A stretch of DNA of 28,061 bases. Origin: Bdellovibrionota bacterium. Its GTDB lineage: Bacteria > Bdellovibrionota_C > UBA2361 > OMII01. Of this stretch, positions 2,919 to 16,271 are shown piece after piece. Position numbers and translations under genes: made by a program. The notes below the pieces were generated by a model. It had not been told where the DNA came from and searched no databases. It was given only the letters and a program-made list of their open reading frames with translations. Position 1 is the first letter of the stretch; every line of letters starts with the position of its first letter. The DNA lies in assembly GCA_032111275.1 (NCBI GenBank), contig JAULVA010000247.1, positions 1 through 28,061 on the forward strand, written 5' to 3'.

Positions 2919-3119
2919 GAACGCTACCTTACGTTGGCGGCCCCATCAGTGGACCACTGCAGGTGGAGGGTATGGCCATTCGATAGCCCCCCCGACCATC
3001 CTAGAGACGCTAGCAGAGCCCCCTGCGGGGATCAAGTGAAAGGGATTCACCTGAAAGTGTGCCTTTACGGTCCGACGCATTCGAACTACGATCGAATAGC
3101 TCAGCCCGGAGAATCATTC

Positions 3120-10518: not shown

Positions 10519-10716
10519 CCTGCCTGGCAGGGTGGTGAAAAAAGATTTCCTCCTGCGCATCTTGATAGTTTGACTGCAACTTCGTTGGAGATATCGAAAA
10601 AATCCTAAACGTATCCCAGAGGATACGTCTCCGGTTTTTTCGCCATCTCCGCCTCGTTTCGTCTAAACTCTCAAAATGCTCGCGACGGACCCTGTTTTCA
10701 CCACCCTGCTAGGCAG
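10519..10716. mobile_element. ~198-bp imperfect palindrome, MITE-like (ERIC/Correia-type architecture)
   Basis: Terminal IR 10521-10541 vs 10695-10715 (20/21); inner IR 10587-10616 vs 10621-10650 (23/30) around a CAGA loop; intervening arms also align; TA on both flanks (10517-18, 10717-18); no ORF. Confidence 0.6.
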
Positions 10717-10742
10717 TATCGGCGCGATATCTGGTTACTGAA
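10716..10742 (-). promoter_or_regulatory. Sigma28 (FliA)-like promoter pointing towards the mini-flagellin gene
   Basis: TTCAGTAA-N11-GCCGATAC vs consensus TAAAGTTT-N11-GCCGATAA (-10 matches 7/8, -35 only 4/8). Confidence 0.45.
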
Positions 10743-10829
10743 TGTTTCGAAGCTAACCCGGCTCAGAAAAAAACATGCCGGCCCTCATTTTTTCCCGTTG
10801 AGGACAAAAAACCACCTAAACACATGAAA

Positions 10830-11461
10830 CTACTGCCGCAACAATTGAAGATGCGGAACCCCCAGCCCCCCAACCATGAGACGGGTATTATTCACCATAT
10901 CCGCGTATAGCCCTCGGCTCGTCATCAGGTCCGGGTGACTCCCCGACTCGGCGATCCGCCCCCCTTGGAGTACGAAGATCTGGTCGCAATCCGCGACCGA
11001 TGAGACCTTATGCGTCACCAGAATAATAGTGCGATCCTTTCGTAATCACTGATTACTCGGTACATAGTGTCGCCCTGAGCTTTATCTCGATGCCACGGGA
11101 CACCAAGAGCCTGCAGATGCTCGAAGACGCTAGCGCGCAGCCGACGGGTACCACGATACTTAATGATAGCGCTCAGTATCCCTCGACACATGAACACTAC
11201 CTCCTGAAGCACTTTGATCAGCAACCCTCCGATCGCGATCGTTACAACCTGCTCCATCCGAGACTCTCCAGTTAGCGAAAAGATCGCTTGAGCCGGAAGG
11301 CTAATCTTTGGCGTCGGAGCTAACACCGCGTCGATCAGGATAGCGAGGGGCCATGCTCCGCAGAGGTTGAGCAGCACCGACAATCCAATCAGAGCTAACA
11401 AGAGAACCATCAGGTAAACTTCAGTTCGAAAAAACGAGATAGCTCGAATGATCATGGTCAT
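10830..11461 (-). pseudogene. ABC exporter (MsbA-like TMD-NBD fusion) with large internal deletion and frameshift
   Basis: First ~139 codons are TMD (WPLAILID...LRASVFEHLQAL...GDTMYRVISD). At ~11045 the sequence continues in another frame as LRKDRTIILVTHKVSSVADCDQIFVLQGGRIAESGSHPDLMTSRGLYA (NBD tail from the H-loop). Walker A, signature and Walker B are absent. Confidence 0.9.
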
Positions 11462-11672
11462 GACGCGCCCTATGTAAACCTACATCGCTCCGTCAACACG
11501 AAGCTAAAACCCTCAAGAGACCAGCAACCCACCGGCGGCGACAGCACCTCTATGATCGCCCTTAGTCTCCGCATCTCTGGGCGCAAACTGTAAGGAGCGC
11601 TTCGAACGATGTAAAGCAAGCCCATGCGCGAAAAGAGGAGTCTTCTGTTTTCAATTCGCGCGAAATTCCAGT

Positions 11673-11714
11673 GACAGATATCAACCGACAGATATCAACT
11701 GACAGATCTCATAC
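11673..11714. repeat. Three tandem 14-bp repeats in a divergent intergenic region
   Basis: GACAGATATCAACC / GACAGATATCAACT / GACAGATCTCATAC; near-palindrome AATTCGCGCGAAATT at 11653-11667. Confidence 0.75.
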
Positions 11715-11846
11715 GAGCAGGAAGCCCTCATACCCTATTCTTCTAACCCTTAAGGCGCACGACCGCTCGGTATGCCAGCGAATGTTGTAACGAGCGCTGT
11801 GTATCTCATCCCTCGTGGCAGTAACCTCCGAATTGACAATCACACT

Positions 11847-12929
11847 ATGACCCGACCTCCCTACAACATCAGCGAAGAGCGCCCCGCTCGAGTGGCGATT
11901 TTGCGCGCGCTCAAGTTAGGAGATCTGCTGTGCTTCATTCCGGCGGTGCGAGCTCTGAAAGCGGCATCACCTGATTCCTCGGTTACCTTGATCGGTCTGC
12001 CATGGGCGCGCCCCTTCGCCCGGAGGTTCTCGATGTATTTCGATGACTTCATTGAATTTCCCGGCTGGCCGGGAGTTCCGGAACGCCCAATTGATTACCC
12101 GCGCATCCCGCAATTTCTCGCGTCGGCTCAACGAGCTCCTTTTGACCTCGCGCTTCAGTGCCATGGGAGCGGATCCCATGTAAATGATATCGTCACCCTT
12201 CTTCATGCCAAACATTCCGCGGGGTTTCATCAGCCATCGGACGGTATCACTAACCTGGATAGCTGGATCCCCTATCCAGCATACCAACCGGAGATCTGGA
12301 GGTGGCTCGACCTCGTGTGTCACCTCGGCGGATCGTTCGCTGGCGACCACCTCGAATTTCCATTATCGGAGGAGGATTTCGATGATCTCGCCCCGATCCT
12401 TCCACGCGGGATCCTCGACCGTCCCTACATCATCGCGCACATCGGCGCCACAACCCGTCGCGACCAACTTTGGGGCGTTCATAACTTCGCGAAGGTTGCC
12501 CGGCACCTGTACCACAAAGGATATGAGATTATTTTGACCGGCACACAAGAGGAGCAGGACCTCGTCCGAACGCTCAAAGAGATGTGCGAGATACCTGCCA
12601 TCAGTGTCTGTGGTCAAACATCTCTCGGAAGTCTCGGTGCGCTCACACGAAACGCCTCATTACTCATATCTCACGATACCGGCGTCGCTCACCTCGCGGT
12701 GGCGGTCGACACCCCAAGCGTGATCATCCATAACCGCTCGCAGACACTGGGCTGGCCCCCGTTGAACAGGATTCGTCACCGCTTCCTGTCCAGCTTCGAG
12801 CCGTTGCGACCAGCGATAGTCATCGAGGAGATCGAGGAGCTCCTCTCCTGGAGATACTCACGACCAAAGCCCCCCGTCTCCTCGTCCGCGACCATCGACT
12901 CGTTTCCCAACTCGCAGGAAATGCTATGA
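11847..12929 (+). CDS. Glycosyltransferase family 9 (ADP-heptose:LPS heptosyltransferase-like)
   Basis: RALKLGDLLC, FDLALQCHGSG, AHIGA, LTGTQEE, GQTSLGSLGAL, SHDTGVAHLAVAVDTPSV. Start 11847 preferred over 11772; stop overlaps the next ATG (ATGA). Confidence 0.9.
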   Translation: MTRPPYNISEERPARVAILRALKLGDLLCFIPAVRALKAASPDSSVTLIGLPWARPFARRFSMYFDDFIEFPGWPGVPERPIDYPRIPQFLASAQRAPFDLALQCHGSGSHVNDIVTLLHAKHSAGFHQPSDGITNLDSWIPYPAYQPEIWRWLDLVCHLGGSFAGDHLEFPLSEEDFDDLAPILPRGILDRPYIIAHIGATTRRDQLWGVHNFAKVARHLYHKGYEIILTGTQEEQDLVRTLKEMCEIPAISVCGQTSLGSLGALTRNASLLISHDTGVAHLAVAVDTPSVIIHNRSQTLGWPPLNRIRHRFLSSFEPLRPAIVIEEIEELLSWRYSRPKPPVSSSATIDSFPNSQEML

Positions 12930-13424
12930 GACGCCTTAAGATATTCACGTGGCACATTCACGGTAGCTACCTGTACTATCTGTCCCAACTCGATCACGAT
13001 ATTTTCATCCCGATAACGTCAGACCGCTCTCTCGGTTACTATCGATCGAGAGGCGGTCCTAAGTCCCGAGCAACGGAACGGTCCTCAGATTTACATCGAG
13101 CACGACCCGCCGCGTGAAAGCCCAACCGATACTTGCCACATCGTGGATGATCCGAATGTGCTACTCGTTCATGTCACTCCATTTAATGAGCTGATGTGGA
13201 ATAATAATCAAACTTCCACTCACGTGATTGAGCACGGGGTGCTCGTTCCGCCGCATATTCGCTACACCGGAGATCTCTCGCGCGCGTGCGTCGTGATTAA
13301 CAATCTCCGTGCCAGGGGGCGCCGGCTCGGACTCGATATCTATCAAGAAGCCAAGGGGATATTTCCCATAGATCTTGTTGGCATGTGCTGGGATCAGGTC
13401 GATGGGATCGGAGAGCGGTCCCAT
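12926..13424 (+). pseudogene. GT4-type glycosyltransferase, internally deleted and 3'-truncated
   Basis: MRRLKIFTWHIHGSYLYYLSQ...LGY ends at ~13040; frame +1 continues IDREAVLSPEQR...YIEHDPPRESPTDTCHIVDDPNVLLVHVTPFNELMW...HGVLVP...RRLGLD...DLVGM...GIGERSH to ~13424. The donor-binding E-x7-E half is missing. Confidence 0.8.
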
Positions 13425-13530
13425 TACGATCGAGGAGACACTCGCTAAAAGGGCGGACGCTATCATAGCCGAGTGTCCGCAAGATCGAGAGGATCTGATC
13501 GCGCTCTACAACGCCGACCCAAGTCGGGTA
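13423..13530 (+). pseudogene. 36-codon internal fragment of a second GT4 (MshA-like)
   Basis: ITIEETLAKRADAIIAECPQDREDLIALYNADPSRV, the mid-protein segment of MshA-like GT4s; no start or end of its own. Confidence 0.7.
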
Positions 13531-13531
13531 G

Positions 13532-13858
13532 GATTGCTATTTCTGCCCTCATCGAAGTGACGCAACGGTACCAAACTATCGGGTTACCTGTGATTGCCGA
13601 AAGCCCAACCCAGGAATGTTCATCACCGCAGCTCGTCAACACCAGATCACGCTGCGTGACTCATGGATGATCGGGGATATCTTGGACGATATTGAAGCGG
13701 GGAACCGCGCAGGTTGTCGCGCCATCCTTCTCGATAACGGCAATGAGACCGAGTGGCGGGTTGATAGCGCGGAGCGAACACCCGATTTCACCGTTGCCTC
13801 AATTAACGAGGCGTGTCGTATCGTGGTCGAGGCACGTTACGCCAGAGAGGTCCAATGA
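13532..13858 (+). pseudogene. C-terminal half of a GmhB-like HAD-IIIA phosphatase
   Basis: DCYFCPH...TCDCRKPNPGM...SWMIGDILDDIEAGNRAGC; in-frame TAG at 13529-31; the N-terminal DxD nucleophile motif is absent. Confidence 0.88.
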
Positions 13859-14949
13859 GTTGGGATACCGCTCGCGACGTCCTCTGTGTGAGGCTAGACC
13901 AGATGGGTGACGTGTTGATGACGACCCCTGCCCTTCGAGCCGTTCGAGGATCGCGTTGCCGCCGAGTTACCCTCCTCACCTCATCCGCCGGTGCCGTTGT
14001 GGCGCGCCACATTCCCGAGGTGTCGGATATTATCGTCTACGATCCCCCCAGGATGAAGCACTCCTTCCATCGCCCCGATGCGCGTGAGGACCTCGCCATC
14101 ATCGAGACACTTCGGGCCCGCCGATTCGACGCCGGGATTATTTTCAACGTCTTCTCGCAAAGCCCCCTCTCCGCGGCATTACTCCTCTACCTGGCGGAGA
14201 TACCCCTTCGCCTCGCGCTGTCACGAGAGAATGCTTATGCGCTGCTCACTGATTGGATCCCCGACACCGAAGCCGCCAACGGAATACGGCACGAGGTAAG
14301 ACGGCAACTCGACCTCGTGAGAGTTGTCGGGTGGGAACATTCGGATGAGAGACTCTCGTTCACTATCCCGGTTGGAGTATCGCAACGCGTGACCTCCCTC
14401 ATTCAGAGCCTCGGCTTACGATCCTCATGGATGGTCGTGCATCCCGGAGCTTCGGCGTCATCACGACGCTACCCGCCATATCTGTTCGCCAAAGCGCTTC
14501 GCATCATTCTCAAAAGCGGCTGGCAGGTCATCTTCACCGGTAGCCTTGAGGAGGTTCCCCTGATCGAAGAGATTCGCGCGGCACTCCCACCAGAAACCAT
14601 ATCGCTGGCCGGAAAGCTCTCACTACCCGAACTAGCCGCTCTTATCGACCAAGCGCCACTTCTGCTCACCAACAACACCGGGCCCAGCCACATCACGGCT
14701 GCGGTCGGAACTCCGGTCGTTACGTTGTATGCCTTAACCAACCCCCAACATACGCCGTGGCAGGTCCCATCTATCGTACTCTCGCACGATGTCCCGTGCC
14801 GCAATTGCCTTAAGAGCGTGTACCCCGAGGGACACAACCATTGCCTCACCCTCATTGAGCCTCGTGATGTCGCTCAGGCATGTATTCACCTTTTTGATGC
14901 GACAACCAAATCGTTATACGGGGGGCACTATGCTTACACTGGGGATTAA
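13855..14949 (+). CDS. Glycosyltransferase family 9 (WaaF-like)
   Basis: VRLDQMGDVLMTTPALRA, VHPGASASSRRYP, LAGKLSLPELAAL, TNNTGPSHITAAVGTPVV; ATG13855 overlaps the GmhB-remnant stop. Confidence 0.9.
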   Translation: MSWDTARDVLCVRLDQMGDVLMTTPALRAVRGSRCRRVTLLTSSAGAVVARHIPEVSDIIVYDPPRMKHSFHRPDAREDLAIIETLRARRFDAGIIFNVFSQSPLSAALLLYLAEIPLRLALSRENAYALLTDWIPDTEAANGIRHEVRRQLDLVRVVGWEHSDERLSFTIPVGVSQRVTSLIQSLGLRSSWMVVHPGASASSRRYPPYLFAKALRIILKSGWQVIFTGSLEEVPLIEEIRAALPPETISLAGKLSLPELAALIDQAPLLLTNNTGPSHITAAVGTPVVTLYALTNPQHTPWQVPSIVLSHDVPCRNCLKSVYPEGHNHCLTLIEPRDVAQACIHLFDATTKSLYGGHYAYTGD

Positions 14950-15169
14950 CGCGGCATTTCATGACTCGTCCGCCGCGCTCTTACGAGATGGCGTGTTGAC
15001 AGCCGCGGCTGAAGAGGTGGCGACGCTGCTCGAGCAAGATGAGGTTATCGGGTGGATGCAGGGAAGAATGGAGTGCGGCCCTCGCGCTCTCGGAGCTCGT
15101 TCAATTCTCGCCTCTCCGCTTGACGAGCTCGTCATCGGGAGATTTGTGATTGAGAAACAACGCACATGA
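14930..15169 (+). pseudogene. Carbamoyltransferase (NodU/CmcH family) reduced to 79 aa by two in-frame deletions
   Basis: MLTLGINAAFHDSSAALLRDGVLTAAAEE | VATLLEQDEVIGWMQGRMECGPRALGARSILASP | LDELVIGRFVIEKQRT: the N-terminus, the GRxExGPRALG block and the extreme C-terminus joined in one frame. Confidence 0.92.
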
Positions 15170-16152
15170 ACTCTCCATCGGGTATCTCCGTTGTAATTCC
15201 CACCTATAAGAGGAACAGCCTCCTGATCCGCTGTTTGCAGGCGCTTGAGGAGCAGAGTTATCCGGCGGAACAGGTCGAGGTCATTGTGTGTGACGACGCA
15301 CCTGCGGAGTCGACGCGGATGCTCGTCGAGTGCATGGCGAGTCTCGTGCCCTACACGCTACGATATCTAGCGGTACCTGATTCGCAGGGCCCAGCGGCCG
15401 CGCGCAACAGAGGATGGGAGTCGGCCCAGCATGAATTCATCGCCTTCACTGATGACGATACGATTCCCGAACCGGATTGGCTCGCCGAGGGGGCACAAGC
15501 TTTACACCGCGCCTTTGCCGTAGCTGGACGGGTGATAGTCCCGCTGCCCTCGATACCAACTGATTATGAGAGGAACGAGGCGGGGTTACAGCGAAGCGAA
15601 TTCGTTACGGCCAATTGCTTCGTCCGACGTTCAACATTGCGAACGTTGAACGGTTTTGACGAGCGATTTGCGGCCGCATGGCGAGAGGATAGTGATCTTC
15701 ACTTCCGCCTGCTATCTCTACCCAATTCGAACGGCCTCCAAAATGTTATCCGGTGCGAATCGGCTCGAGTTCGTCATCCCGTCCGACCCGCCAGGTGGGG
15801 AATAAGCCTCTCGCAACAGAGGAAGAGCGCATTTAACGCGCTTCTTCGCGCTAAACATCCCTCTCTTTTTCGACAACGCATAGAGCCCGGGCCTCCACTC
15901 AACTACTACCTTGCCTCACTTTCCCTTGGGCTTACGCTCCTTGGGTCCTGCGCGCATCAGGTAGAGACCGCGATGGTAGCTGGGGGACTGTGGGCCGCGG
16001 TCACGACCGGATTCTGTAGGCGAAGATTGAGAGGAACTTCACGCAGCCCCTCTCATCTCTTGGAGATGGCGGTTACCTCGATGCTCATTCCCCCAATCGC
16101 CATTTTTTGGCGATTGGTCGGCGCGTGGCGATACAAAGTTTTTTATCTGTAG
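15166..16152 (+). CDS. Glycosyltransferase family 2 with C-terminal membrane segment
   Basis: SVVIPTYKR, VIVCDD, GPAAARNRG, FTDDD, GFDERF, EDSDL; appears full length (328 aa). Confidence 0.92.
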   Translation: MNSPSGISVVIPTYKRNSLLIRCLQALEEQSYPAEQVEVIVCDDAPAESTRMLVECMASLVPYTLRYLAVPDSQGPAAARNRGWESAQHEFIAFTDDDTIPEPDWLAEGAQALHRAFAVAGRVIVPLPSIPTDYERNEAGLQRSEFVTANCFVRRSTLRTLNGFDERFAAAWREDSDLHFRLLSLPNSNGLQNVIRCESARVRHPVRPARWGISLSQQRKSAFNALLRAKHPSLFRQRIEPGPPLNYYLASLSLGLTLLGSCAHQVETAMVAGGLWAAVTTGFCRRRLRGTSRSPSHLLEMAVTSMLIPPIAIFWRLVGAWRYKVFYL

Positions 16153-16197
16153 GAAGCGTGATGTCTCGTTGCCTCGTCGGTCATTACCACTATCCGA

Positions 16198-16271
16198 GTA
16201 GGTCGGCCGGAGCCCACCGACCGGGAGCTAAGCGAAACACGCCCTCACTGCAGTCAAACGCCGCAACCTAC
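16198..16271. repeat. Degenerate inverted pair of GTAG-led hairpins (second REP-like class)
   Basis: GTAG-GTCGG...CCGACC (+, 16198-16222) and GTAG-GTTGCGG...CTGCAG (-, 16271-16248) at the right edge of the glycan island; short stems. Confidence 0.35.

Follow-up and report, generated by a model that had tools for sequence, protein, structure and literature searches.

Six large deletions in an accessory heptose-glycan island of an uncultured Bdellovibrionota bacterium: a probable case of recent, stepwise erosion

The window analysed here is the first 28,061 nucleotides (nt) of a 30,878-nt contig, C247 (GenBank JAULVA010000247.1), from a metagenome-assembled genome (MAG) of a Bdellovibrionota bacterium (assembly GCA_032111275.1). 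The MAG is fragmented, with 3.09 Mb in 392 contigs, and is 77% complete with 4.6% contamination; the public DNA closest to the window comes from estuary and aquatic metagenomes. Within the window lies an island of putative glycan genes that has eight genes in intact references and here consists of three intact genes plus fragments. The glycosyltransferase genes GT9a, GT9b and GT2 are whole, and the fragments come from an ATP-binding cassette (ABC) exporter, two GT4 glycosyltransferases, a GmhB-like phosphatase and a carbamoyltransferase. Six-frame reading with Pfam puts the start of an ABC transmembrane domain (11015-11479, minus strand) against an ABC ATPase tail (10830-11045, minus strand), and resolves 12926-13858 (plus strand) into short frame-hopping pieces with GT4 and HAD-phosphatase signatures.

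The comparison material includes three intact forms of the island. Logan contig L028, from a public run, is ~97% identical to the window in nucleotides with the same gene order and was the reference for breakpoints; Logan contig L023, also from a public run and ~93% identical, was the outgroup for polarising substitutions. The window and both contigs share the same flanks, namely the ole cluster, a gene for a protein of 149 amino acids (aa) and a large NAD-glutamate dehydrogenase gene. The island of L028 runs from a divergent MsbA-like ABC exporter through GT9a, GT4a, GT4b, GmhB, GT9b and a NodU-type carbamoyltransferase to GT2. A DNA search in 40 relatives returned only a short repeat (the element at 10524, below) and no operon match, since the nucleotide sequence of the operon has diverged too far, and a protein search of the genus was needed to find the third intact form in the congener G002 (locus L022; GT9b 55% identical). 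This operon encodes a divergent ABC exporter of 623 aa, then a GT9 (359 aa), a GT4-like protein (334 aa), a GT4 (442 aa), GmhB (192 aa), a second GT9 (378 aa), a carbamoyltransferase (577 aa) and a GT2 (326 aa).

Read against these references, the island in the window is made up as follows, with aa positions those of the intact proteins.

10833-11047, minus strand: last part (aa 542-612 of 612) of the MsbA-like ABC exporter, in a different frame from its N-terminal remnant (tblastn, 98.6% identity to L028)
11048-11461, minus strand: N-terminal remnant of the same exporter, aa 1-139, the first part of the transmembrane domain (partial Pfam ABC_membrane; tblastn, 96% to L028)
11462-11771, no strand: retained divergent intergenic (promoter) region between the exporter and GT9a, collinear with L028 in a gap-free 97.3% block (11045-13041)
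11772-12929, plus strand: GT9a, heptosyltransferase-like, intact at 385 aa (Pfam PF01075), equal in length to the L028 gene and without gaps
12926-13041, plus strand: N-terminal remnant of GT4a, aa 1-39, whose start still overlaps the GT9a stop (tblastn, 100% to L028 GT4a)
13042-13424, plus strand: middle remnant of GT4a, aa 77-204 (tblastn, 97%)
13425-13529, plus strand: GT4b remnant of 105 nt, aa 152-187 of 441 (tblastn)
13530-13858, plus strand: C-terminal remnant of the GmhB-like HAD-IIIA phosphatase, aa 85-192, whose stop still overlaps the GT9b ATG (Pfam Hydrolase_like; tblastn, 97%)
13855-14949, plus strand: GT9b, the second GT9, intact, 364 aa from the ATG or 378 aa from a GTG at 13813 (PF01075; 98% aa identity to the protein P0121)
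14930-15169, plus strand: in-frame minigene of 79 aa from a NodU/CmcH-type carbamoyltransferase of 575 aa, keeping aa 1-29, ~401-434 and the last 16 aa
15166-16152, plus strand: GT2, intact at 328 aa (Pfam PF00535), collinear with L028 and gapless

The original prediction, made from the letters of the window, had both GT9s and the GT2 at full length, and the collinearity of all three with L028 bears this out. For the other genes, the window retains 210 of 612 aa of the exporter, 167 of 336 of GT4a, 36 of 441 of GT4b, 108 of 192 of GmhB and 79 of 575 of the carbamoyltransferase. These copies lack essential domains and have full-length orthologues in L028, L023 and G002, as expected of a pseudogene cluster. 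The only Pfam match of the 79-aa minigene is to positions 1-36 of Carbam_trans_C; it keeps a 20-nt overlap with the 3' end of GT9b and an ATGA overlap with GT2. Paralogous genes for GmhB (C117) and a carbamoyltransferase (C132) are present in the genome.

Alignment of the window with L028, by BLAST and inspection, gives six deletions, here called d1 to d6.

d1, junction 11047/11048: 1207 nt lost inside the ABC exporter; 3-nt microhomology (ATC); frameshift
d2, junction 13041/13042: 113 nt lost inside GT4a; 1-nt microhomology; frameshift
d3, junction 13424/13425: 834 nt lost, the GT4a C-terminus and GT4b N-terminus; 1-nt microhomology; two genes joined in different frames
d4, junction 13529/13530: 1012 nt lost, the GT4b C-terminus and GmhB N-terminus; no microhomology; two genes joined in different frames
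d5, junction 15015/15016: 1119 nt lost, carbamoyltransferase aa 30-400; GAAGA (5 nt), or 10 nt with one mismatch, AEE being coded at both ends; in frame
d6, junction 15120/15121: 369 nt lost, carbamoyltransferase aa ~435-559; CT (2 nt), or 8 nt with one mismatch, SPL being coded at both ends; in frame

Together they remove 4654 nt, or 47% of the ~10-kb island, in line with the several kilobases that had been predicted to be missing. The predicted junctions (~11045, ~13040, ~13424, ~13531, ~15013 and ~15116) all fall within 5 nt of the aligned breakpoints, and tblastn of the G002 operon proteins on the window reproduced every one of them. In an independent comparison, contigs of the estuary runs X1 and X4 have an extra 1204, 112, 1012 and ~1585 nt at the same places, the 1012 nt at d4 being in an X1 contig. 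A search for the lost segments elsewhere in the 77%-complete MAG, a check the prediction had called for, found none.

The lesions are of one kind. The ~1.8 kb of remnants contain no small indel and, in their original frames, no stop codon, which upholds the earlier view of piecewise large deletion rather than decay by point mutation. Every retained piece keeps its original order and orientation, without filler DNA, and half of the deletions (834, 1119 and 369 nt) are multiples of 3 nt. The deletions are also confined to the island: genes of 1613, 1279 and 870 aa elsewhere on the contig are whole and align with L028 without gaps, and ~17 kb of flanks and intact genes on the contig have no coding indels. 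In a scan for gaps between open reading frames (ORFs), ~10% of the whole MAG lay outside ORFs, an ordinary value, the scan being too crude for other eroded loci.

The island is absent from one close relative. Contig L193 (NCBI GCA_027486155.1, JAIXPR010000134.1), from a MAG ~90% identical to the window, lacks the entire 10.1 kb with clean boundaries, so that the 149-aa gene is joined directly to the NAD-glutamate dehydrogenase gene, ~480 nt apart. By this comparison, which covers window positions 10523-16234, the island begins shortly after the ABC stop and ends ~80 nt past the GT2 stop, with ~70-115 nt in its place in L193. G002 carries the operon at another locus, with different neighbours. 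Absence from L193 and a different position in G002 together indicate an accessory and mobile element, and the suggestion that this is acquired DNA is supported. Protein searches found the island in 2 of 35 species of the genus and other GT9 genes in all 35, and it is therefore a second, accessory system. Homologues of GT9b are 48-60% identical and scattered over many phyla, in genome contigs and JGI metagenome contigs, with no near relative among them.

All eight proteins of the island fall short of the NCBIfam equivalog cut-offs, and only domain-level HAD-IIIA models pass (scores in bits against cut-off: TIGR02195, 121.7 and 134.6; TIGR02193, 69.5 and 185.3; MsbA, 376 and 602; GmhB, 130 and 178). 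By these thresholds the operon is not assigned to the WaaC/WaaF type of inner-core heptosyltransferase operon for lipopolysaccharide (LPS). Gene content and distribution make it an accessory and mobile island, presumably for a heptose glycan, that close relatives have in intact, eroded or missing form.

How long ago did the decay begin? On the window lineage the remnants have 22 synonymous and 20 nonsynonymous changes, against 70 and 22 in the flanking genes (Fisher p=0.009); the same segments have 17 and 5 on the L028 lineage. The corresponding ratios of nonsynonymous to synonymous change per site (pN/pS) are 0.23 for the remnants on the window lineage, 0.12 on the L028 lineage and 0.10 for the flanks. 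Constraint on the remnants is thus relaxed, by a modest amount that is partly driven by a cluster of substitutions at d5. Since their pN/pS is only 0.23, the relaxation is recent: constraint was lost in roughly the last tenth of a branch with ~3.7% synonymous divergence. Over such a span, six kilobase-scale deletions amount to a high rate.

The best explanation, to which we give a probability of about 0.6, is that a ~10-kb heptose-glycan island, horizontally mobile and dispensable, has recently been eroded in this lineage by stepwise illegitimate deletions. Loss of need for the island would have been followed by six or more separate illegitimate deletions, independent of RecA and probably one after another. 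Four would have been end-joining or slippage events at 0-3 nt of homology, and two would have taken place between imperfect direct repeats of 8-10 nt, which code for AEE and SPL. The deletions that persisted leave GT9a, GT9b and GT2 whole; with the carbamoyltransferase frame and both gene overlaps kept, ribosomes could still be handed on to GT2. The locus stands midway between the intact allele of the closest relatives and the island-free allele seen in a slightly more distant one.

Several observations weigh against this explanation. The deleted form is known from this MAG contig alone, and reads support only d5, the other five junctions being unconfirmed by reads. The substitution cluster at d5, together with short words shared between endpoints, is not predicted by independent events, and six deletions of 113-1207 nt without a small indel make an unusual spectrum. 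Finally, pN/pS on the window lineage is 0.29 for the spared genes and 0.23 for the remnants, so that the former are under no tighter constraint. Changes in GT9b on this lineage number 7 nonsynonymous and 2 synonymous, compared with 0 and 6 on the L028 lineage (a post hoc p=0.007).

Is the deleted form real? The contig might match no real DNA molecule, being an artefact of assembly or binning from an organism that has the intact island. Glycan islands vary among strains and are hard to assemble, and the MAG is, as described, fragmented, incomplete and partly contaminated. No indexed public run holds the whole deleted form: the best share of its words, 0.42, is that of an intact strain, as the 97% relative gives. 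Exact-protein look-ups (minigene, ABC fragment, GT2, GT9a, OleA and the 149-aa protein) likewise found no independent assembly of the strain. A run search with a 165-nt stretch spanning d3 and d4 gave two runs holding 4 of its 13 words, a result that is not interpretable from words alone. Against an artefact, De Bruijn assemblers can join sequences over 0-10 nt of homology only when some reads span the join. Such reads exist for d5. Low-depth unitigs of run X5, whose study is not that of X1, match the window at 100% identity; they are built from 31-mers present two or more times, and one of them (151 nt, window 14878-15028) crosses d5 by 13 nt as an exact match. It includes the window-specific substitutions left of d5, where the intact allele differs at more than 10 positions. 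A loose end at 13808 in X5, considered as a variant, was rejected as a unitig fold-back. The restriction of the deletions to the island, on a contig whose large genes are intact, and the lineage-specific nonsynonymous excess of the remnants also argue against an artefact, which we regard as very unlikely.

If the deletions are real, how were the ends joined? The original prediction proposed repeated repair of double-strand breaks by short-homology joining, the breaks coming from restriction or from clustered regularly interspaced short palindromic repeats (CRISPR). Appreciable short homology is present at two of the six junctions only: d5 and d6 look like classic short-direct-repeat deletions. 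The 0-3 nt of homology at d1 to d4 are what alternative end joining, or another kind of illegitimate joining, would leave. A search of 35 genomes of the genus, 23 being of high quality, gave no Ku (PF02735), with a positive control in Bacillus subtilis; canonical non-homologous end joining is therefore unlikely, and with it joining of the Ku/LigD type. The pathway was probably Ku-independent alternative end joining or replication slippage.

The proposed source of the breaks is unsupported. Nuclease attack on acquired DNA, by restriction-modification or CRISPR self-targeting with subsequent end joining, would suit an acquired, accessory island and the four junctions with 0-3 nt of homology. Ku, however, was not found in the 35 genomes searched, the 12 deletion endpoints have no shared motif and no enriched k-mer nearby, and nothing spacer-like in the 77%-complete MAG matches the lost DNA. 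Twelve simultaneous breaks would also be unlikely to rejoin in the original order and orientation. We hold this origin to be most improbable.

Were the deletions separate events at all? In a single replication or repair episode, several forward template switches could have made all or most of them together, and the short retained stretches of 105, 105 and 383 nt would be what was copied between one jump and the next. Such events are known as microhomology-mediated break-induced replication or fork stalling and template switching (MMBIR/FoSTeS-like). The retained pieces fit this in being collinear, in the original orientation and free of filler DNA, as do the 0-10 nt of microhomology and the similar size (0.83-1.2 kb) of four of the deletions. 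The lack of small indels and the low pN/pS of the remnants also leave little time for six separate events. The substitution cluster at d5 (14994-15041, plus strand) points the same way: 13 changes on the window lineage, polarised with L023 and partly covered by the X5 unitig, lie within 48 nt centred on the junction and include four adjacent-pair (dinucleotide) changes. A donor for the cluster was sought in the genome and none was found. Endpoints of different deletions also share exact 8-mers within 20 nt (ACGGAACT, CGATCGAG, AGAGCGGT and TTCCATGC), at L028 endpoints 7342/7724/8559, 7724/11161 and 8663/12385 (window junctions d2 to d6), giving four pairs where 1.25 are expected (P=0.037).

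The 8-mer signal is marginal and post hoc, and the substitution cluster is present at one junction only. Thirteen substitutions in 48 nt is far above the density known for break-induced synthesis, and to our knowledge a multi-jump deletion of this kind has not been described in bacteria. The sparing of three genes and the twofold retention of the carbamoyltransferase frame would be unexpected from a random burst. A single event of this kind is, in our judgement, unlikely.

When six deletions of these sizes are placed at random, all three spared genes (GT9a, GT9b and GT2) are missed with p~0.01, and with ~3e-4 when overlap between deletions is disallowed. The chance that both carbamoyltransferase deletions are in frame is 1 in 9. 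The retained frame and both retained overlaps of the minigene are consistent with preserved translational coupling. Upstream, the frameshift in GT4a ends translation ~740 nt before GT9b, so the coupling chain to GT9b is broken, and constraint on GT9b may have relaxed after this break. Selection for the spared genes is plausible, rather than demonstrated, and selection or coupling may explain what was left. The predicted selective sparing of the heptosyltransferases is thus favoured by where the deletions lie and opposed by the pN/pS values.

A stronger form of selection would make the deletions themselves adaptive. Here phages or grazers, for example, would have selected for loss of the GT4 sugars, the carbamoyl group and the dedicated exporter, while GT9a, GT9b and GT2 stayed functional and built a simplified glycan with housekeeping GmhB and MsbA. 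The non-random sparing, the in-frame deletions with the GT9b and GT2 overlaps kept, and the paralogous GmhB and carbamoyltransferase in the genome are in favour. A further point in favour comes from a search with the 79-aa minigene, which found one other short protein of the same architecture, P0124 (104 aa), on two JGI metagenome contigs of 42% GC (L190:2865-3436 and L191:628-1292), adjoining a CotH/Por-secretion-tail gene. P0124 joins aa 1-30 of a NodU/CmcH carbamoyltransferase to aa 398-452 without loss of frame, and ~12 nt past its stop an intact GT2 begins. It is an independent event in an unrelated organism, with endpoints nearly those of the window minigene, and the parallel could mark a deletion hotspot or a selected minigene. 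Adaptive pruning is opposed by the spared genes being no more constrained than the remnants, by the nonsynonymous excess in GT9b, by the broken coupling chain and by the dead exporter, with which the pathway may have no outlet. We regard it as possible but doubtful.

Elements of these alternatives may also be combined. One multi-jump template-switching episode could have made all six deletions and left a hypermutated or homeologous patch at one junction, and/or the mini-carbamoyltransferase could be a recurrently selected short ORF that delivers ribosomes to GT2. This we think quite unlikely. Stepwise erosion of a dispensable island remains the explanation that we favour.

Two other differences between the window and its relatives were seen. 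A palindromic repeat of 185 nt resembling a miniature inverted-repeat transposable element (MITE; 10524-10708, no strand) lies just beyond the 3' end of the ABC exporter and is not among the deletions. It sits ~48 nt inside the flank common to the window and the island-free L193. Dozens of copies, 85-93% identical, occur across the genus, yet this one is absent from L028, L023 and the X1 and X4 contigs, the 97% and 93% relatives having a single A at the site. Farther away, at window 3043-3053, a 93% relative (L192) has 1337 extra nt with a Methyltransf_21 gene (297 aa), between a 2-hydroxyacid dehydrogenase gene and a gene for a 428-aa secreted protein; this may be an insertion or a deletion.

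The erosion proposed here has close parallels in bacterial pseudogenes, where dead genes are likewise removed by deletions and not by point mutations (Kuo and Ochman, PMC2817411, PMC2916853; Danneels et al., PMC6054270). Bacterial pseudogenes are deletion-biased, with spectra in which deletions of 15 nt or less prevail; 43% of these lie between microhomologies of 2-11 nt, attributed to alternative end joining (PMC6054270). The microhomology-flanked junctions of the window resemble those ascribed there to the Ku-independent pathway, and its three deletions that are multiples of 3 nt match the reported 3n bias (PMC6054270). Young pseudogenes are reported to vanish more quickly than expected under neutrality (PMC2916853). 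The window differs from these published cases in that all of its events are of 113-1207 nt, without a small indel and packed in one 10-kb island, whereas most pseudogene deletions are of 15 nt or less (PMC6054270). It also differs in setting and pace: this is a free-living estuarine bacterium, and the time has been short.

Surface-glycan loci offer other comparisons. The O-antigen cluster of Yersinia pestis is reportedly a row of pseudogenes in one lineage, intact in close relatives such as Y. pseudotuberculosis. Inactivated surface-polysaccharide clusters of this sort carry mainly frameshifts and small lesions, in a pathogen; the window, in contrast, has kilobase deletions and three genes left whole in an uncultured environmental organism. 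Aquatic bacteria have strain-variable glycosylation islands ('metagenomic islands') that are linked to phage predation. The island studied here is like them in being an accessory glycan island present or absent among near-identical strains (L028 and L023 intact, L193 absent), and unlike them in that an eroded intermediate allele has been captured, not whole-island replacement. LPS inner-core clusters, for example that of Pseudomonas aeruginosa, contain heptosyltransferases, GmhB, MsbA and a heptose carbamoyltransferase. In gene content the island resembles the P. aeruginosa cluster, with two GT9 genes, GT4s, GmhB, a NodU-type carbamoyltransferase and an MsbA-like exporter; unlike that cluster, it has no protein that reaches the equivalog cut-offs, and its occurrence is limited to 2 of 35 species.

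The locus is a well-resolved example of a known process, ordinary gene decay, and reveals no new mechanism. What it adds is an allelic series of a kind that is rare in wild uncultured bacteria: intact in relatives at 97% and 93% identity, half-eroded in the window and absent at ~90%. The series shows the pace at which such an island is dismantled and the type of lesion involved: kilobase-sized losses whose ends have very little homology or none, in a genus whose searched genomes gave no Ku. The surviving deletions appear to be those that keep gene overlaps intact. Such a series should be useful for calibrating deletion spectra and for interpreting the fragmented glycan clusters that are met in MAGs.

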